Source: Bacillota bacterium (GTDB lineage Bacteria; Bacillota; Clostridia; TANB77; CAG-508). From it: DNA of 64,000 nt. The position numbers were made by a program, and so were the translations under genes. The notes beneath the pieces are model-generated. The model did no database searches and was not told where the DNA came from. It saw only the letters and a list, made by a program, of their open reading frames with translations. The stretch covers positions 10,632 through 74,631 of the forward strand of contig CAWVEX010000003.1 in assembly GCA_963928415.1 (NCBI GenBank). Reading direction: 5' to 3'. Below are positions 47,622-55,209 of this stretch, piece after piece (within the stretch, counting starts at the first letter, position 1; each line of letters begins with the position of its first letter).

Positions 47622-48277
47622 TGGAAGTATCAACATCATTATTAAGTGTAAAGAAAGAGGATATAATTCAAACAATATATAATCTAGAAGTAGCAAAAAC
47701 AGATTATTTTCATATTGATGTAATGGATGGAAGATTTGTAGAAAATGATACATCAGAAACAATGAGAATATATTGTGAGTATTTAAATCAAATAACAAAT
47801 GTTCCAATAGATGTACATTTAATGGTTACTAATGTAAAAGAATATATAGAAAGTTATTCAATATTTAATCCTAATATAATTTCTTTTCATTATGAAGCGT
47901 GCAAAGATAAAGAAGAAGTAAATAAATATATAAATCAAATAAAAGAAAGAGATTGCAAAGTAGGATTAGCCATAAAGCCTAATACAAGTGTAGAAGATAT
48001 AATCGAATTTTTACCAAAAATAAATTTACTATTAATTATGTCAGTAGAACCTGGAAAAGGAGGACAAGAATTTATTGCTTCTACTTTAGAAAAAATAAAA
48101 TATGCAAAAGAAAAAATAGAAGAACTAGGTTTAGATACAGAAATAGAAGTAGATGGTGGAATAAATATAGAAAATGCAAAAGATATAGAAGAAGCGGGAG
48201 CAACAATAGCTGTTTCTGGAACTGCAATTATTAATTCAAAAGATTATAGTTATACCATAGGAAAAATGAAAGAATAA
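47621..48277 (+). CDS. rpe: Ribulose-phosphate 3-epimerase
   Basis: FHIDVMDG.F, DVHLMV, MSVEPGKGGQ.F, VDGGIN. TAATG overlap with rsgA. Confidence 0.9.
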   Translation: MEVSTSLLSVKKEDIIQTIYNLEVAKTDYFHIDVMDGRFVENDTSETMRIYCEYLNQITNVPIDVHLMVTNVKEYIESYSIFNPNIISFHYEACKDKEEVNKYINQIKERDCKVGLAIKPNTSVEDIIEFLPKINLLLIMSVEPGKGGQEFIASTLEKIKYAKEKIEELGLDTEIEVDGGINIENAKDIEEAGATIAVSGTAIINSKDYSYTIGKMKE

Positions 48278-48326
48278 TAAAGTAAATAATGAATTTAATT
48301 AAAATATAACATTAAAAGGAATGAAT

Positions 48327-48962
48327 ATGAACCAAAAAAAAGCAGTAAAAATAATTAAAAAATTAAAAGAAATGTATCCAGATGCTACATGCAGTCTAGA
48401 TTTTTCTACACCTTTTCAAATGCTAGTTGCAGTATGTTTATCTGCACAATGTAATGATGAAAGAGTAAACAAAACAACACCAGAAATTTTTGAAAAATAT
48501 CCAACAGTTTTTGATTTTAATAATATGGATATAAAAGTATTAGAAGAATTAATACATCCTTGTGGATTTTATAAAAATAAAGCAAAAAATCTAAAAGCTG
48601 CAAGTAAGATGATAGTAGAAAAGTTTAATGGAGAAGTTCCAGATAATATGAAAGACTTAACATCTATTCCTGGAGTGGGGAGAAAAAGTGCAAATGTAAT
48701 AATGCTAGAAGCTTTTCATAATCCACAAGGAATAGCAGTAGACACACATGCAAAAAGAATTTCAAATAGAATAGGATTTTCAAAAGAAACAGATCCACTA
48801 AAAATAGAGCAAGATTTATTAAAAGTTATACCTAAAGAATATTATTATGATGTAAATCATTTATTAGTATGGCATGGAAGAAAAACATGTACTGCTAGAA
48901 ATCCTAAGTGTGAAGAATGTGCATTAAATGATTTATGTGAAAGTTATAAAATGCAAAAATAA
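48327..48962 (+). CDS. nth: Endonuclease III
   Basis: HhH-GPD (LTSIPGVGRKSANV, VDTH) and the 4Fe-4S cluster C-x6-C-x2-C-x5-C at the C-terminus. An alternative ATG is at 48321. Confidence 0.9.
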   Translation: MNQKKAVKIIKKLKEMYPDATCSLDFSTPFQMLVAVCLSAQCNDERVNKTTPEIFEKYPTVFDFNNMDIKVLEELIHPCGFYKNKAKNLKAASKMIVEKFNGEVPDNMKDLTSIPGVGRKSANVIMLEAFHNPQGIAVDTHAKRISNRIGFSKETDPLKIEQDLLKVIPKEYYYDVNHLLVWHGRKTCTARNPKCEECALNDLCESYKMQK

Positions 48963-49057
48963 ATTTATAAATTGTATTAGAATATTATTGGTTATTAAAT
49001 AAAAACTAGTAGAAAAAGACTATAAGGTATGATATAATATAATTGTGAGGTGATTGA

Positions 49058-49408
49058 ATGAAAAATAAAATTCCAGAAAAAATAGAAAAGTCTATTCAAA
49101 AATTTGTATTAGAAGCAAATAAAATGTTTGGAAATAGAATAAAAAAAATTATACTATATGGTTCTTATGCTAGAGGCGATTATAAAGATAATTCTGATAT
49201 AGATATTATGATATTAACAGATATGACAGACAAGGAAATAGTTGAATATAGTGAAAAAATATGGGATTTTGCTTATGATATAGAATTAGAAAATGATGTT
49301 TTAATTTCACCAACAATAAAAAATATAGATAAATTTAATTATTGGCTAAAGGCATTACCTTTTTATATGAATGTTCAAAAAGAGGGAGTGATATTGAATG
49401 GAAAATAA
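49058..49408 (+). CDS. Minimal nucleotidyltransferase (MNT) antitoxin-type protein
   Basis: GSYARGDYKDNSDIDIMILTD (GSxxRG...DxD). Confidence 0.8.
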   Translation: MKNKIPEKIEKSIQKFVLEANKMFGNRIKKIILYGSYARGDYKDNSDIDIMILTDMTDKEIVEYSEKIWDFAYDIELENDVLISPTIKNIDKFNYWLKALPFYMNVQKEGVILNGK

Positions 49409-49793
49409 AGTTTCAAAAGAATTAGCTTGGCACAGATTAGAACAAGCTAAAGAAGATATTTTAGCATGTGAATTATTATATAATGGAAAATTATATAAAT
49501 CTGCTAATAATAGAGCTTATTATGCTATTTTTCATTCAATTAGAAGTGTTCTAGCACTTGAACCTATAGATTTTAAAAGACATAAAGATGTTATAGCATA
49601 TTTTAATAAAAATTATGTAAATACAGAGATTTTCCCTAAGAGTATAGGAAGAAAAATTGCAAGGGCAAATCAAGTAAGAGAAGATAGCGATTATGATGAT
49701 GAATTTATTGTAGATCCTAATAATACATTAGTACAAATAAATACAGCCAAAGAATTAATAGATTTAGTAGAAAAGTACTTGAATAGAAATTAA
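49398..49793 (+). CDS. HEPN-domain protein (toxin partner of MNT)
   Basis: 131 aa, all-helical. NNRAYYAIFH and REDSDYD motifs typical of the HEPN family paired with MNT. 11-nt overlap with the MNT gene. Confidence 0.8.
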   Translation: MENKVSKELAWHRLEQAKEDILACELLYNGKLYKSANNRAYYAIFHSIRSVLALEPIDFKRHKDVIAYFNKNYVNTEIFPKSIGRKIARANQVREDSDYDDEFIVDPNNTLVQINTAKELIDLVEKYLNRN

Positions 49794-49815
49794 TTAATTA
49801 GATAAATAATAAAAG

Positions 49816-49844
49816 TTGAAAGATAGTATTTTTTATATTATAAT
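49816..49844 (+). promoter_or_regulatory. Consensus-like sigma-A promoter
   Basis: TTGAAA, 17-nt spacer, TATAAT. About a 100-nt leader before the small ORF. Confidence 0.45.
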
Positions 49845-49954
49845 ATAGAAATCTAGAAGATAGTGATTTAAAAGCAACTGCTAGAGAATTACTAAATAAA
49901 ATAAAGTATTAAGCTATCTGATTGTATTCTTGCGATATAGTAGGAGTGATGAAA

Positions 49955-50122
49955 ATGGATGTTGTTCCTAAACCTAAAAGTATAACTCGTAAAACTATGG
50001 ATATACATATATCCAAAAGAAAAATTGCAGAAGTATCCAAAAGACTTGGAATGAAAATTAATGAAGTTGATAGTCGACTTGAACAAAGTTTTGAGGATGC
50101 AAAAAAACAATATTTCAAATAG
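49955..50122 (+). CDS. Small hypothetical protein (55 aa) with HTH-like segment
   Basis: SD TAGGAG 8 nt before the ATG at 49955. MDVVPKPKSITRKTMDIHISKRKIAEVSKRLGMKINEVDSRLEQ... Promoter and terminator are in the same orientation. Confidence 0.4.
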   Translation: MDVVPKPKSITRKTMDIHISKRKIAEVSKRLGMKINEVDSRLEQSFEDAKKQYFK

Positions 50123-50159
50123 TTGATATTGCAATCAGATTGTAAAACACTTTATTTTA

Positions 50160-50198
50160 CAGCCATTGTGGAAATAATTATCCATGATGGCTGATTTT
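50160..50198 (+). terminator. Hairpin terminator
   Basis: CAGCCATTGTGGA/TCCATGATGGCTG stem (two G-T pairs) followed by TTTT. Confidence 0.6.
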
Positions 50199-50209
50199 AA
50201 AAAAAATAG

Positions 50210-50237
50210 TTGACATATTATTTTTTCGTGATATAAT
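50210..50237 (+). promoter_or_regulatory. thrS promoter
   Basis: TTGACA, 16-nt spacer, TGA-TATAAT (extended -10). Confidence 0.7.
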
Positions 50238-50244
50238 AAGTATT

Positions 50245-50478
50245 GTAAAAGCAGTAAGAGAAAAAGTAAAATAAAGGTTGCTTAAAGAGAGAATTAGTCA
50301 TAGGCTGAAAGCTAATTCAAGTAAACATATTTGAAAAACTACCTCTTCAAGCCTCTAGCGAATAAGCTAGACGTCAGGTGCGTTATAGCCTAAAATGAAG
50401 TGAAATATCCGGGTGGAACCGTGCTTATATAAGTACCCCAGAACATAATTTATAGTTATGTTTTGGGGCTATTTTTTA
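50245..50478 (+). promoter_or_regulatory. T-box riboswitch leader (threonine specifier)
   Basis: Stem I base GCTTAAAGAG/CTCTTCAAGC with an AGAGA motif, distal hairpin GAATTAG...CTAATTC, specifier region AAAACUACC (ACU/ACC at 50338-50343). T-box CGGGTGGAACCGTGC at 50410-50424. Terminator CCCCAGAACATAA/TTATGTTTTGGGG followed by T6. Confidence 0.85.
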
Positions 50479-50504
50479 CCTCAAAACATAGAAAGGAAGT
50501 ATTT

Positions 50505-52436
50505 ATGATTAAAGTAACTTTAAAAGATGGCTCTATAAAAGAAGTAGAGCAAGGAATTAGCATTTATGATTTAGCTAAACAAATTAGTGAAGGATTAGCT
50601 AGAAACGCTACATGCGGAAGAGTAGATGGCAAAGTAGAAGATTTAAGATATGAATTAAAAAATGATTGCCATTTAGAAATATTAACATTTGATAGTGATT
50701 TAGATGGAAAAAAGGCTTATTGGCATACAACATCACACATAATGGCACAAGCTGTTAAAAGATTATTTCCAAATGTAAAATTAGCAATTGGTCCAGCTAT
50801 TGATGATGGTTTTTATTATGATTTTGATGTAGAAAATAATTTTACAGATGAAGACAAAGAAAAAATAGAAGCTGAAATGAAAAAAATTATAAAAGAAGAT
50901 TTACCAATAGAAAGATTTTCACTTCCTAAAAAAGAAGCATTAGAGCTTATGAAAGATGAACCATATAAACAAGAATTAATCAATGATTTAGCAGAAGGAG
51001 AAGAAATATCTTTCTATAAACAAGGTGAATTTACAGATCTTTGTGCAGGTCCTCATTTAATGAGTACAGGAAAAATAAAAGCTGTAAAAATATTAAATAA
51101 TTCAGGTGCATATTGGAGAGGAAATGAGCATAATAAAATGCTACAAAGAATTTATGCTATATCATTCCCTAAGGCATCTTTACTAGAAGAACACTTGAAC
51201 TTACTAGAAGAAGCTAAACAAAGAGACCACAGAAAAATAGGTAAAGACCTAAATTTATTTATGACACATAAATTAGTAGGTTCAGGACTTCCTATGTACT
51301 TACCAGATGGTGCAACAATAAGAAGATTGCTTGAAAGATATATTCAAGATAAAGAAATAAAACTTGGTTATCAACATGTTTATACACCATGCTTAGCAAA
51401 TACAGAATTATATAAAATAAGTGGACATTGGGATCATTATAAAGATGATATGTTCCCTATAATGAAAATGGATAATGAAGAAATGGTATTAAGACCAATG
51501 AACTGTCCACACCATATGCTAATATACAAAAATAGCCTACATTCATATAAAGATTTACCAATTAGAATAGGTGAACTTGCTCATGATTTTAGATATGAAG
51601 CAAGTGGTAGTGTTTGCGGACTAGAGAGAGTTCGTGAAATGTGTCAAAATGATGCTCACTTATTTGTAAGACCTGATCAAATAAAAGAAGAAGTAGGAAG
51701 AGTATTAAATTTAATTAAAGAAGTATATCAAAAAGACTTTGGATTCCCAGCATCTAACTTTAAATATAGATTATCTTTAAGAGATAAAGATAATAAGGCA
51801 AAATATATAGATAATGATGAAATGTGGGAAACAGCTGAAAGTCAACTTCGCGAAATCTTAACAGAACTTGGAATAGATTTCTATGAAGCAAAAGGTGAAG
51901 CTGCATTCTATGGTCCAAAAATAGATATACAAATTAAAACAGCACTAAATCATGATATTACAATTCCAACTTGTCAATTAGACTTTGCACTTCCAGAGAG
52001 ATTCCAATTAACATACATTGGAGAAGATGGAAAAGAGCATAGACCAGTTGTTATACATAGAGCAATACTAGGTTCTTCAGATAGATTTATGGCATTCTTA
52101 ATAGAAGAAACAAAAGGAGCATTCCCAGTATGGCTATCTCCAAAACAAGTTAAGATATTACCTATTACAGATAAACATGTTGAATATGCAAATAAAATAA
52201 AAGAAGAATTACAAGAACAAGGTATAAGAGTAGAAGTAGATGACAGAAATGAAAAAACAGGATATAAGATTCGTGAAGCTCAATTATCTAAAGTTCCATA
52301 TATGCTTATAGTAGGAGATAAAGAAGTAGAAAGTAATACTGTTTCTGTAAGAGACAGAAAAGATGGAGACTTAGGAAGTATTAAAATAGAAGACTTTATT
52401 AATAGAATTGTAAAGGAAGTAAACGAATATAAATAA
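50505..52436 (+). CDS. thrS: Threonine--tRNA ligase (full length: TGS, editing, catalytic and anticodon-binding domains)
   Basis: MIKVTLKDGS (TGS), HTTSH/editing domain, RPMNCPHH, FRYEASG...GLERVREMCQNDAH, HRAILGSSDRF. The track start at 50463 lies inside the T-box terminator. Confidence 0.95.
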   Translation: MIKVTLKDGSIKEVEQGISIYDLAKQISEGLARNATCGRVDGKVEDLRYELKNDCHLEILTFDSDLDGKKAYWHTTSHIMAQAVKRLFPNVKLAIGPAIDDGFYYDFDVENNFTDEDKEKIEAEMKKIIKEDLPIERFSLPKKEALELMKDEPYKQELINDLAEGEEISFYKQGEFTDLCAGPHLMSTGKIKAVKILNNSGAYWRGNEHNKMLQRIYAISFPKASLLEEHLNLLEEAKQRDHRKIGKDLNLFMTHKLVGSGLPMYLPDGATIRRLLERYIQDKEIKLGYQHVYTPCLANTELYKISGHWDHYKDDMFPIMKMDNEEMVLRPMNCPHHMLIYKNSLHSYKDLPIRIGELAHDFRYEASGSVCGLERVREMCQNDAHLFVRPDQIKEEVGRVLNLIKEVYQKDFGFPASNFKYRLSLRDKDNKAKYIDNDEMWETAESQLREILTELGIDFYEAKGEAAFYGPKIDIQIKTALNHDITIPTCQLDFALPERFQLTYIGEDGKEHRPVVIHRAILGSSDRFMAFLIEETKGAFPVWLSPKQVKILPITDKHVEYANKIKEELQEQGIRVEVDDRNEKTGYKIREAQLSKVPYMLIVGDKEVESNTVSVRDRKDGDLGSIKIEDFINRIVKEVNEYK

Positions 52437-52442
52437 GTATAA

Positions 52443-52469
52443 AGAGTTCACTTAAAAGTGAGCTCTTTT
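52443..52469 (+). terminator. thrS terminator
   Basis: AGAGTTCAC/GTGAGCTCT stem followed by TTTT. Confidence 0.7.
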
Positions 52470-52578
52470 AAAATGTTCTTTTGTGAATAATTTTTAGACT
52501 AAAAATATTATATAAATAGAGTGTCAAATTTTGTAGAAAAATGTCGACGAAAGATAAGCAAAAATAAAAGAAAATATA

Positions 52579-52607
52579 TTGACATATATAAGAAAACATA
52601 ATATACT
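52579..52607 (+). promoter_or_regulatory. Near-consensus promoter with no adjacent ORF
   Basis: TTGACA, 17-nt spacer, TATACT. The next ORF starts about 215 nt downstream. Confidence 0.4.
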
Positions 52608-52823
52608 TAAAACAATTAAAAAATCAATTGATTTAATTCATTAATTTTTTTATCAAATATTCTTATACATTTTCAAAAATACGTATTTTAAATGTTTCCA
52701 AACGAAAGAAGAAAAATTTCAATTTTATAAATTTAACTTACCTAATATAATGCGTAGGTTTAATAATTATACATAAAAAACTTGACGAAATATAATAAAA
52801 GAAGTATAATCAAGGAGGAAAGA

Positions 52824-53897
52824 ATGAAAATACATATAATTGAAAATGATGATTTAGAAGAAGATGAAAAATTAAGTAATAAGCCTAAACTAAGGTTAAT
52901 AACAAATGATTATTATAAAGTAGCAGAAGAAGAATCTAAATATTCATATACCAAAAATTACACTAATAATTTTAATGATAAAATAATGAGAAAAATATTA
53001 AAAGATAAAGTTCAAGCATCAATATACTTAAATGAATGGCTTAAGATAAAAAAGGGATTTGAAATAAAACCTGAAGAAATAGAAGAGGTTACAGAGAGTT
53101 ATATAACTAAAAGTTGGAAAAATAGAGAAACAGATATAGTATATAAAGATAAAAAATACGAAGGGGTATTTTATTTAATAGAGCATCAGACAAAAGTAGA
53201 TTATTTAATGGCAAAAAGAATACGAGAATATAAGAATGAAATAGAAAATCATTATGAATTAAATAGTTCTAGTAAAGATATAAGAAGAATTGCAAATGTC
53301 ACAGCTTTAGTTATATATATTGAAAATAGAAAATGGAAGGCAAAAACAAATATAGAAGAATTAAAAATAAAAAATCCAAGGCTAAAGGAAAAACAAAAAG
53401 ATGACTATGAAATAATAAGTATTAATGATTATACATTAGAAGTGCTAGAAGAAAAAGTTAAAGAAAATGAGGAAAATATAATACTAAAATTAGCTTTAAT
53501 AAATAAACTAGGAAAGATGAAAAATGAAGAAATAATGATAAAAGTAATGAAAGATATAAAAATAAATTCTACTCAAATAGATTATGTAGCATCATATATA
53601 AATGAAAGAATAAGTAAAAAATGTGGCAAAGAATTTGCAAAACTAATGATAAAAAATATAGAAGAAAAATTAGAAAATAGGGAGGAAAAGAATATGTTAG
53701 AAGCATTTGTGGACAGATTTTTAGATATTGCAGATGAAAGGGAAAAGCGTGGAGAAAAACATGGCATTGCTCAGGGAATAAGCCAAGTAGCAATTAATAT
53801 GCTTAAAGCAAAGTGTGACAAAAAAATTATAAAAAAATGTACAGGGCTAAGTGATGAAAAAATAAAAGAACTAGAAAAAACATTGCAAAATGCATAA
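52824..53897 (+). CDS. Rpn-family (YhgA-like) PD-(D/E)XK recombination-promoting nuclease / putative transposase
   Basis: ETDIVYKDKKYEGVFYLIEHQTKVDYLMAKRIREY core and C-terminal EKRGEKHGIAQGISQVAINMLKAK...TGLSDEKIKEL tail. ATG after AAGGAGG. The track start at 52782 coincides with a TTGACG -35 element. Confidence 0.8.
   Translation: MKIHIIENDDLEEDEKLSNKPKLRLITNDYYKVAEEESKYSYTKNYTNNFNDKIMRKILKDKVQASIYLNEWLKIKKGFEIKPEEIEEVTESYITKSWKNRETDIVYKDKKYEGVFYLIEHQTKVDYLMAKRIREYKNEIENHYELNSSSKDIRRIANVTALVIYIENRKWKAKTNIEELKIKNPRLKEKQKDDYEIISINDYTLEVLEEKVKENEENIILKLALINKLGKMKNEEIMIKVMKDIKINSTQIDYVASYINERISKKCGKEFAKLMIKNIEEKLENREEKNMLEAFVDRFLDIADEREKRGEKHGIAQGISQVAINMLKAKCDKKIIKKCTGLSDEKIKELEKTLQNA
53694..53897 (+). 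CDS. Candidate in-frame internal ORF (67 aa) within the rpn gene, RpnS-like
   Basis: GGGAGG at 53680-53685, 8 nt before an in-frame ATG at 53694. It encodes exactly the C-terminal helical tail MLEAFVDRFLDIADEREKRGEKHGIAQGI... Confidence 0.3.
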   Translation: MLEAFVDRFLDIADEREKRGEKHGIAQGISQVAINMLKAKCDKKIIKKCTGLSDEKIKELEKTLQNA

Positions 53898-53920
53898 TCT
53901 TTATTTATAAAAAAATAAAA

Positions 53921-53949
53921 CAGTATTTTGAAAAAAATACTGTTTTTTT
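53921..53949 (+). terminator. Intrinsic terminator after rpn
   Basis: CAGTATTT/AAATACTG stem followed by T7. Confidence 0.8.
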
Positions 53950-53989
53950 ACTTTCTTAATGATATAATAATTAAAACTAAGGAGGACAA

Positions 53990-55165
53990 ATGGAATACAG
54001 TAAATTAGGTAAAGAATTAGAAATATATACAAATGTAGATTATATTGGAAAAGGCTTCCCTATAATTCTTCCAAATGGCGCTAAAATGATGAAGATTTTA
54101 CAAGAGATGGTAGAAGATGAAGAAGAAAAAAGAGGCTACTCAATAGTTAGAACGCCAAGTTGCTCGAGAGCTGAAATATATATGATTGAAGACAGATGGG
54201 AACAAGAAAAAGATGAGATATTTACAATAGAAGATGAAGAAGAACAAAATTCAATTGTATTAAGACCTTATGTAAGACCATTCCATTGTAGTCTTTATGC
54301 TACTAAACCTCACAGTTACAAAGAATTGCCAGTAAAATTAAGTGAAACTTCTACTGTATTTAGAGATGAACCTACTAGTAAAATAAGAGGGCTTACTTGT
54401 ATGAGGCAGTATTCTTTTTCAGATGCAAGTATATTTACTTCTCCAGAGCTATTAGAAAAAACATTAAAAGAATCTGTAGAAATAGAAAAATATTTTATGG
54501 ATAAGTTAAACTTAAATGTTGAGTATAGAATATCTACATGGAATACAAATAAAAAAGAAGAATACATAGGTACTATAAATGAGTGGAACATGGTAAGAGA
54601 TGCAATGGAAAAAGTCTTAAAAGATAGCAATATAACTTATATAGAAAACCAAGATGCTAAAATGTATGGACCAAGTATACAAGTTTTTTATAATAGTAAA
54701 TTACTAGCAAAAATAGAGATAGATTTTGAAATAACACATAGATTTGATTTAAAATATACAGATAAAGATGGATTAGAAAAATTTCCAATATATATACATA
54801 GGCAAGATTTAGGAAGTTATGAAAGCATGCTTGCTATATTAATTGAAAAGTATCAAGGAGAATTTCCTACATGGATTGCACCTGTTCAATGTTGTATAAT
54901 TCCTGAATATGATGAATATATAGATTATGCAAATAAGTTAAAAGAAAAATTAAGAGATAGAAGAGTAAGAGTTTCAGTAGATTTTACAAATAAAAGTACA
55001 GAGGAAAAAATAGCTAAAGCTCAAAAGTTTAAAATACCATATATTGTTCTTATTGGTAAAGAAGAATATAATAGCAATGAAATATCAGTTTTAAGATATG
55101 GAAATAAAGAAACAAAACATTATACATTAGATGAAGTAATGAATATGTTTGATAGAAGAAGATAA
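53990..55165 (+). CDS. Truncated ThrRS paralog (class II catalytic core plus anticodon-binding domain only) with substituted active-site residues
   Basis: 391 aa, collinear with thrS residues ~250-643 (e.g. FPTWIAPVQ, IPYIVLIGKEE, YGPSIQV). Lacks the TGS and editing domains. RPYVRPFHC versus RPMNCPHH, FSDASIF versus QNDAHLF, GSYESM versus GSSDRF. Confidence 0.85.
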   Translation: MEYSKLGKELEIYTNVDYIGKGFPIILPNGAKMMKILQEMVEDEEEKRGYSIVRTPSCSRAEIYMIEDRWEQEKDEIFTIEDEEEQNSIVLRPYVRPFHCSLYATKPHSYKELPVKLSETSTVFRDEPTSKIRGLTCMRQYSFSDASIFTSPELLEKTLKESVEIEKYFMDKLNLNVEYRISTWNTNKKEEYIGTINEWNMVRDAMEKVLKDSNITYIENQDAKMYGPSIQVFYNSKLLAKIEIDFEITHRFDLKYTDKDGLEKFPIYIHRQDLGSYESMLAILIEKYQGEFPTWIAPVQCCIIPEYDEYIDYANKLKEKLRDRRVRVSVDFTNKSTEEKIAKAQKFKIPYIVLIGKEEYNSNEISVLRYGNKETKHYTLDEVMNMFDRRR

Positions 55166-55209
55166 AAATCTAAAGTTTTAATAATTAAAATTATGAAAGG
55201 AGAAATATT

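Follow-up and report, generated by a model that had tools for sequence, protein, structure and literature searches.

A truncated threonyl-tRNA synthetase beside a complete one

What is a second, shortened gene for threonyl-tRNA synthetase (ThrRS) doing beside a complete one? The question is raised by a 64,000-nucleotide stretch of DNA (the window; G+C content 26%) from a Bacillota bacterium of the class Clostridia (contig CAWVEX010000003.1, positions 10,632 to 74,631), which encodes, in addition to a full-length thrS, a protein of 391 amino acids (aa) corresponding to the core of a ThrRS and called here the paralog. Comparison with its relatives has shown the paralog to be a selected, non-ThrRS protein of predicted ThrRS fold, and its gene is followed by an orphan gene for a 750-aa protein, p750, whose partner it may be.

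53990..55165, + strand: the paralog, a ThrRS-core pseudo-synthetase of 391 aa with an ATG start (from the listing of open reading frames)
53980..53985, + strand: AGGAGG ribosome-binding site of the paralog, 4 nt before the ATG (read from the sequence)
50505..52436, + strand: thrS, bona fide and full-length, of type A (PMNCPHH / QNDAHLF / GSSDRF), with 749 bits against TIGR00418 (cut-off 383.65)

The product of the paralog aligns collinearly with that of thrS, from thrS residue 241 to the C-terminus (BLASTP; 34% identity over 378 aa, E 2e-76), and consists of a catalytic-fold domain (residues ~1-296) followed by an anticodon-binding-fold domain (~297-391). Its only Pfam matches are tRNA-synt_2b (PF00587) and HGTP_anticodon (PF03129, E 1.5e-16); the same search found neither a TGS nor a tRNA_SAD (editing) domain in the paralog, while all four domains are present in the product of thrS. 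The paralog scores 297.7 bits against the ThrRS equivalog model TIGR00418, under its cut-off, and among the NCBIfam models no other aminoacyl-tRNA synthetase family outscores ThrRS on it.

Homology searches returned a closed family of proteins of 390-426 aa, with identity down to 47%, and an intact open reading frame (ORF) of this length was present in more than 160 sequence clusters. All carriers are uncultured metagenome-assembled genomes (MAGs) of low-GC gut Clostridia from human, rabbit and chicken, which NCBI names Clostridium sp. or Clostridia bacterium (e.g., CAG:793). JGI labels one family member 'threonyl-tRNA synthetase', probably in error; such labels on paralogs would make ThrRS duplications seem more numerous than they are and could misdirect the inference of metabolism or antibiotic targets in gut MAGs. 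That the paralog is a defence-system or phage gene was considered and rejected: the locus is chromosomal and syntenic, and it had no match in PADLOC or to plasmids. Its sole PHROG match was to a generic phage ThrRS family.

Loss of residues for threonylation

In ThrRS, the zinc ion binds the amino and hydroxyl groups of threonine, the motif-3 arginine and Lys465 keep ATP in place, and the transfer step is promoted by His309. To locate the corresponding positions (E. coli numbering), the paralog was aligned with S. aureus ThrRS (1nyq) by phmmer and with E. coli ThrRS by MAFFT, and residues were then counted across 167 members of the paralog family.

54275..54277, + strand: codon of R96, at the position of zinc ligand Cys334 (from the alignments; Cys in 0 of 167 members)
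54428..54430, + strand: codon of S147, at the position of zinc ligand His385 (Ser in 166 of 167)
54797..54799, + strand: codon of H270, at the position of zinc ligand His511, which is kept (His in 153 of 167)
54824..54826, + strand: codon of S279, at the position of motif-3 Arg520 (Asn in 102, Ser in 47 and Arg in only 6 of 167)

The two alignments agreed with each other and with the register that an initial annotation of this DNA, made from the sequence alone, had set by eye. That annotation had described a truncated ORF at 53990..55165 without TGS and editing domains, in which two zinc ligands were replaced (Cys by Arg and His by Ser), the third was kept and the motif-3 Arg was changed to Ser. 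The 391-aa ORF and every peptide quoted from it are present, only the core and anticodon domains match Pfam, and the four residues are as described, with both zinc-ligand losses extending throughout the family.

Further losses accompany these. Position 334 is occupied by Q, R, K, S, M, Y or E, the His309 position is Arg in 166 of the 167 members, and that of Lys465 is Ser or Ala in 158; Met332, Arg354, Arg375, Gln381 and Thr482 have also disappeared from the family, and position 379, on which adenine stacks, varies. At motif-2 Arg363 the paralog still has an arginine, R125 (Arg in 159 members, Lys in 8). Among 67 true ThrRS, conservation reaches at least 95% in 87 columns of the catalytic domain, of which the paralog family retains 40. 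Because zinc ligands, the motif-3 Arg, Lys465 and His309 are all lost, charging of tRNA(Thr) is not to be expected, and the paralog is thus predicted to make no Thr-tRNA. The earlier suggestion that it is probably not a threonyl-tRNA synthetase is strongly supported by these additional losses, by the 40 of 87 columns and by the TIGR00418 score under the cut-off.

Selection on the paralog

The ratio of nonsynonymous to synonymous substitutions (dN/dS) between the paralog and four relatives was 0.07-0.12, and that of thrS in the same pairs 0.05-0.10 (Nei-Gojobori; synonymous sites are near saturation in these comparisons). Such low values indicate that the paralog is a working gene and not a decaying one. 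Across 15 members, whose identity is as low as 47%, 79 columns are invariant, and positions of the former active site carry new residues that are invariant in the family (Y94, F98-H99-C100, E67-D68-R69, K116, S147 and S229), from which we infer that the site has become a remodelled but constrained pocket or surface. What the family displays is descent from an aminoacyl-tRNA synthetase with its catalytic residues lost under continued purifying selection.

A few copies look different. In one locus (L111, 4634..5509), TECSMF replaces SDASIF and the ORF stops at 298 aa, without an anticodon-binding domain, and in two others (L013 and L104) the copy appears to be frameshifted; these may be lineages that are losing the paralog.

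Descent of the paralog

The full-length ThrRS that we recovered include those of type A, with the three motifs listed above for thrS, to which the enzymes of the window and of its relatives belong, and those of type B (PMTCPFQ, LSDxH, GCYERTL), which many Clostridia possess, C. neonatale, C. beijerinckii and C. butyricum among them. The paralog bears signatures of type B (VEDEEEKRGY, ETST(V/L)FR, xSD and G(S/C)YE...LIEKY), and its mean identity is 36% to type B and ~32% to the resident type. In a distance-based neighbour-joining tree, the members of the paralog family formed a single clade whose sister was type B (100 of 100 bootstraps); a grouping with type A never occurred. This grouping, along with the signature motifs, rules out a tandem duplication of the adjacent thrS, and places the descent of the paralog in a type B ThrRS, either acquired or ancestral. 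The initial annotation had called it a paralog of the neighbouring thrS, which has to be corrected, since the two are of different sequence types; the placement and distribution that it proposed to determine are those given here, with type B in the tree and with more than 160 clusters in low-GC gut Clostridia.

Other full-length ThrRS add to this variety: a third type (PMSCPNA) lies upstream in one locus (L120, at 2769), and types A and B are both seen across loci L020-L088. The types are unevenly spread, which hints that thrS has been replaced or transferred among members of the class.

Genetic coupling to p750

The strongest clue to function, which the initial annotation overlooked, lies directly downstream of the paralog in the form of a constant, translationally coupled gene for a 750-aa protein.

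55210..57462, + strand: p750, gene for an orphan 750-aa protein, directly downstream of the paralog
55198..55202, + strand: AGGAG ribosome-binding site of p750 (read from the sequence)

p750 is located directly downstream of the paralog in all 24 distinct loci, and in 23 of them its start lies between -21 and +102 nt from the paralog stop codon. The order in 17 GTDB species loci is thrS, paralog, the ~750-aa gene and, on the opposite strand, spoIVA. In several divergent members, p750 starts with TTG or GTG 18 nt inside the paralog ORF, with a GGAGG situated 6-7 nt before this overlapping start, within the last codons of the paralog. The pair has also moved as a unit: in two loci (L093 and L094) it adjoins gpr, with thrS and spoIVA not nearby and the ORFs still overlapping. 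In the window, no terminator-like site was found between the two genes. The constant order (24 of 24), the overlapping ORFs, the internal ribosome-binding site and the joint relocation amount to a conserved genetic coupling, by which the paralog is shown, at the level of gene arrangement, to be co-produced with and translationally coupled to p750.

The p750 family is spread far more widely than the paralog (at least 501 stretches in GTDB representatives) and mostly lacks it, which makes the paralog an add-on, acquired once in an uncultured sub-lineage of low-GC gut Clostridia, inserted between thrS and p750, and inseparable from p750 thereafter. Where there is no paralog, p750 is preceded by the true thrS in 13 loci and by a gene for a membrane polysaccharide deacetylase in 16; elsewhere the upstream gene is holA-like or of another kind.

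Several arrangements of p750 were seen in passing. The gap between the polysaccharide deacetylase gene and p750 is only 4-59 nt in 16 species (L139 and 15 others); in the two most distant members (L095 and L096, 6001..8655), p750 follows a DNA polymerase III delta-like gene that is itself preceded by RuvC; and recN or phosphopentomutase is often downstream of p750 in genomes without the paralog. Two independent assemblies (L089 and L090, 9179..11438) have the p750 homologue split into overlapping ORFs of 216 and 552 aa; a genuine separation of the N-domain could explain this, as could a frameshift or programmed frameshifting.

Structure of p750

Database searches left p750 without relatives of established function. 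No match was found in Pfam, whether with single sequences, with distant members or with all 34 members of the alignment, nor in NCBIfam, PHROG, PADLOC, PDB sequences or BFVD; an exhaustive HMMER search of 1.8 billion proteins yielded ~340 representatives of the family itself. A confident AlphaFold2 model of the full-length protein (mean predicted local distance difference test, pLDDT, 79.3; predicted template modelling score, pTM, 0.66) begins with an alpha/beta N-domain (residues 1-272); residues 301-360 and 407-456 form a long helical hairpin, and residues 496-750 make up a C-terminal alpha/beta region. The hairpin helices are 50-60 residues each, and their basic-aromatic tip reads CKKSFFKKISYFFKTKKF (residues 360-378, window ~56287..56343); a further basic-aromatic segment, HKKSIFEFWKFxNKDE (residues 458-472, window ~56581..56625), follows the hairpin. 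These are the two most conserved motifs of p750, and they resemble amphipathic membrane- or nucleic-acid-binding segments.

When modelled alone, the N-domain reached a pLDDT of 92.1, and its search for structural neighbours in the PDB returned none (best E 0.44); we thus rejected the idea that the TGS or editing domain absent from the paralog is provided in trans by p750. The six top Foldseek matches of full-length p750 in the PDB are all ADP-ribosyltransferase toxins (including Certhrax, C3bot1, C3lim and C2-I), and all are weak (probability 0.51-0.97, E 6.6e-3 to 0.15 with none below 1e-3, TM at most 0.44). There was no match to Pfam ADP-ribosyltransferase families, p750 conserves no catalytic signature of these enzymes (R-S-E or H-Y-E), and neither an ExE nor an STS motif was found among its conserved columns. 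With an N-domain lacking a solved structural relative, p750 is a widespread orphan to which the paralog now offers a handle.

Transcription of the locus

Predicted signals between and around the genes would separate the transcription of thrS from that of the paralog and p750.

50245..50443, + strand: T-box leader of thrS (Rfam RF00230, 65.5 bits, E 1e-12 to 3e-14, full-length match)
50436..50468: terminator-like hairpin ahead of thrS
53917..53949, + strand: A+T-rich intrinsic terminator hairpin with T-run before the paralog (13-bp stem; z-score -3.9 for the 95-nt region)
53960..53968, + strand: putative extended -10 promoter of the paralog-p750 operon, TGATATAAT (read from the sequence)
57548..57573, both strands: G+C-rich bidirectional terminator closing the paralog-p750 operon (11-bp stem with 8 GC pairs)

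The T-box, whose specifier appears by eye to be ACU (Thr), scores below the Rfam gathering score of 93 and is therefore missed by a default Rfam scan. No other T-box was found by Rfam within 48000..60500, and none precedes the paralog: T-box control belongs to thrS, not to the paralog. Upstream of the paralog, an equivalent hairpin is present in four related loci (L009, L010, L015 and L018), and TG(A/G)TATAAT occurs at the same place in five (L009, L010, L015, L016 and L018). The earlier view of this region as a terminator plus an extended -10, with no T-box, is therefore upheld, both elements being conserved in relatives. Sporulation-specific expression, at which the neighbouring genes spoIVA, gpr and polysaccharide deacetylase hint, was set aside in view of the conserved, housekeeping-like extended -10 promoter.

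Role of the paralog

We propose, with about even confidence, that the paralog is a non-catalytic accessory or regulatory subunit of p750, a pseudo-synthetase and not a ThrRS. The core of a type B ThrRS has lost its TGS and editing domains and two of its three zinc ligands, and with them the residues for ATP, threonine and transfer as well as the canonical anticodon loop. Apparently transcribed from its own constitutive-looking extended -10 promoter, without a T-box, it would keep the class II dimer fold and act as a non-catalytic subunit of p750, in which the old active site might serve to sense a small ligand. The precedents of HisZ and SLIMP (see below) support such a subunit.

Several points weigh against this proposal. 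Adjacency among related genomes is in part inherited synteny, and 54 of the 69 scorable species loci (from 80 GTDB loci) have p750 without the paralog. The domains of p750 are neither gained nor lost when the paralog is present, the difference being limited to 12 clade-specific substitutions, and 98 columns are conserved in both groups. p750 therefore has no need of the paralog, and a strict requirement of p750 for it was rejected on the grounds of the 54 loci and the unchanged domains. Retention of a dimer and a pocket in the paralog is suggested by the conserved motif-1 and pocket columns only, and the likeness to ADP-ribosyltransferases, the sole structural lead to what p750 might do, is a weak lead only.

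It is unlikely, in our estimate, that the paralog instead acts independently of p750 as a regulator directed at tRNA(Thr) or ThrRS, either sequestering or presenting the tRNA or forming inactive heterodimers with ThrRS. Its gene usually adjoins thrS, the anticodon-binding fold is kept (PF03129) in a slightly basic domain (isoelectric point 8.9), and related proteins are known to associate: Anabaena ThrRS paralogs can hetero-oligomerise (PMC4787780), and SLIMP heterodimerises with SerRS (PMC9437257). However, the anticodon-binding domain has changed where it would have to contact tRNA. Only 12 of its 23 ThrRS-conserved columns are kept in the family; the ThrRS-invariant R574, E576, K577, G579, R583, R609 and R611 have given way to residues that vary within the family, and columns 567-591 are less conserved there than in type B ThrRS (0.43 against 0.69). 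E600 survives (in 155 of 167 members), and K581 is not among the lost anticodon-loop residues. The binding of the tRNA-Thr anticodon that the initial annotation entertained accordingly finds no support in the sequence, with E600 its only remnant. The paralog moreover stems from another ThrRS type than the resident enzyme (~32% identity), is separated from thrS by a terminator, lacks a T-box, and in L093 and L094 has parted from thrS but not from p750.

A stand-alone small-molecule binder, e.g., a sensor of an amino acid or nucleotide whose link to p750 is merely operonic, would be in keeping with the retained R363, E365, D383 and Y462, with the newly invariant Y94, H99, C100, S147 and S229, and with HisZ, which binds histidine in its vestigial site (PMC9437257). 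We consider this improbable too: the overlap of the ORFs and the joint relocation with p750 argue for stoichiometric co-production, and the sequence points to no particular ligand.

More ambitious, and unlikely, is an extension of the subunit proposal to a new two-component module, in which a synthetase-derived ligand- or RNA-binding dimer would direct or gate p750 as an effector of a new kind, so that an activity that modifies or shapes cell structures would be tied to threonine/tRNA status or to a new ligand; the paralog could at the same time be the recycled remnant of the lineage's original type B ThrRS after takeover by type A. In such a module, p750 could have, judging from its model, an N-domain without a solved structural relative, a coiled-coil tip that binds membranes or nucleic acids, and at its C-terminus a region with a faint likeness to ADP-ribosyltransferases.

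There is very little room for a residual enzyme that forms aminoacyl-tRNA or aminoacyl-adenylate through zinc-independent chemistry or from a new amino-acid substrate. Most members do retain the motif-2 Arg and Glu, D383, Y462 and H511, and six even have the motif-3 Arg, but 161 of 167 do not; K465, R375, Q381, T482 and His309 are lost, position 379 varies, and no synthetase family model scores above ThrRS. Finally, a decaying pseudogene or annotation artefact, as the occasional disrupted copies (the frameshifted L013 and L104, and L111 with its 298 aa and TECSMF) might be taken to indicate, is hardly credible for an ORF that is intact in more than 160 clusters with a dN/dS of ~0.1 and whose ribosome-binding site, promoter and coupled downstream start are conserved.

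Other features of the window

Between thrS and the paralog, the window holds one additional gene.

52782..53897, + strand: Rpn-family / Transposase_31 gene (PF04754, E 1e-12; TIGR01784, E 1e-12)

This insertion is confined to this genome: relatives (for instance L009, L015 and L019) lack it at this position, and their order is thrS, terminator, promoter and then the paralog directly. The gene, which encodes a recombination-promoting nuclease of the Rpn family, is thus outside the paralog-p750 system. In two relatives (L010, 7760..7900; L016, 7690..7850), thrS and the paralog are separated by other structured inserts of 150-300 nt that are G+C-rich and carry long inverted repeats, a pattern suggestive of small mobile elements with a preference for this intergenic region.

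On the far side of p750, a 223-aa protein without a family match is encoded between p750 and spoIVA (57587..58258, - strand); one or two divergent copies are present in some relatives (L003, L005 and L008), and others have none. At ~60112..60209, between spoIVA and the next gene, lies a perfect, G+C-rich inverted repeat of 31 bp (minimum free energy -67.8 kcal/mol, z -10.2), which gives rise to spurious matches to plant miRNAs in Rfam and may be an element resembling miniature inverted-repeat transposable elements (MITEs) or repetitive extragenic palindromes (REPs), or else a strong bidirectional terminator.

Comparison with known systems

The closest relatives of the paralog are bacterial ThrRS (1QF6, 1NYQ), and type B in particular, with which it shares the class II and HGTP folds over ~385 collinear residues (36% mean identity) and the motif-1 Pro, motif-2 Arg and Glu, D383, Y462 and H511. 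Unlike them, it has no TGS or editing domain, Cys334, His385, motif-3 Arg, His309, Lys465, anticodon-loop motif or T-box, and it is paired with p750. Duplicated ThrRS genes with specialised roles are found elsewhere, namely Anabaena ThrRS T2 and vertebrate ThrRS-L (TARSL2), but these proteins are full-length, zinc-dependent and active, whereas the paralog is truncated and devoid of the catalytic residues. A 2022 review names only such catalytically active ThrRS paralogs (T2 and ThrRS-L), and searches of the full-text literature turned up no account of a bacterial ThrRS copy that is both truncated and catalytically dead.

The crenarchaeal ThrRS-ed, a Ser-tRNA(Thr) hydrolase (NF011500), is another ThrRS paralog that combines a degenerate catalytic domain with an anticodon-binding domain, but it keeps the editing domain in which its function resides, and the paralog has none; against this model the paralog scores 58.2 bits (cut-off 362), and the match covers the anticodon-binding domain only. 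The accessory subunit of DNA polymerase gamma, POLG2, joins a class II synthetase-like fold to a domain like the anticodon-binding one and is dimeric and non-catalytic; it differs from the paralog in being eukaryotic, in its descent and in having a known polymerase as its partner. SLIMP, a mitochondrial protein of insects that resembles SerRS, has lost aminoacylation and gained protein partners (PMC9437257), and resembles the paralog as a synthetase derivative without aminoacylation residues for which, in the case of the paralog, a protein partner is suggested. SLIMP is, however, eukaryotic and mitochondrial, still binds tRNA(Ser) specifically and forms a heterodimer with its parent synthetase, none of which is indicated for the paralog.

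To our knowledge, bacteria have few non-catalytic proteins that descend from aminoacyl-tRNA synthetases, the textbook example being HisZ. As the HisRS-like regulatory subunit of the ATP phosphoribosyltransferase HisG, HisZ resembles the paralog in being a bacterial class II derivative without adenylation activity whose gene lies beside that of its partner (PMC9437257). The paralog is not HisZ proper, with 26 bits against the HisZ model TIGR00443 (cut-off 271.65): HisZ derives from HisRS, lacks an anticodon-binding domain and has a known enzyme as its partner, whereas the paralog has a ThrRS parent, the anticodon-binding fold and an orphan partner, to which it is coupled at the level of the gene only. 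Alongside HisZ, the paralog family thus offers a clean natural case of a repurposed synthetase fold.

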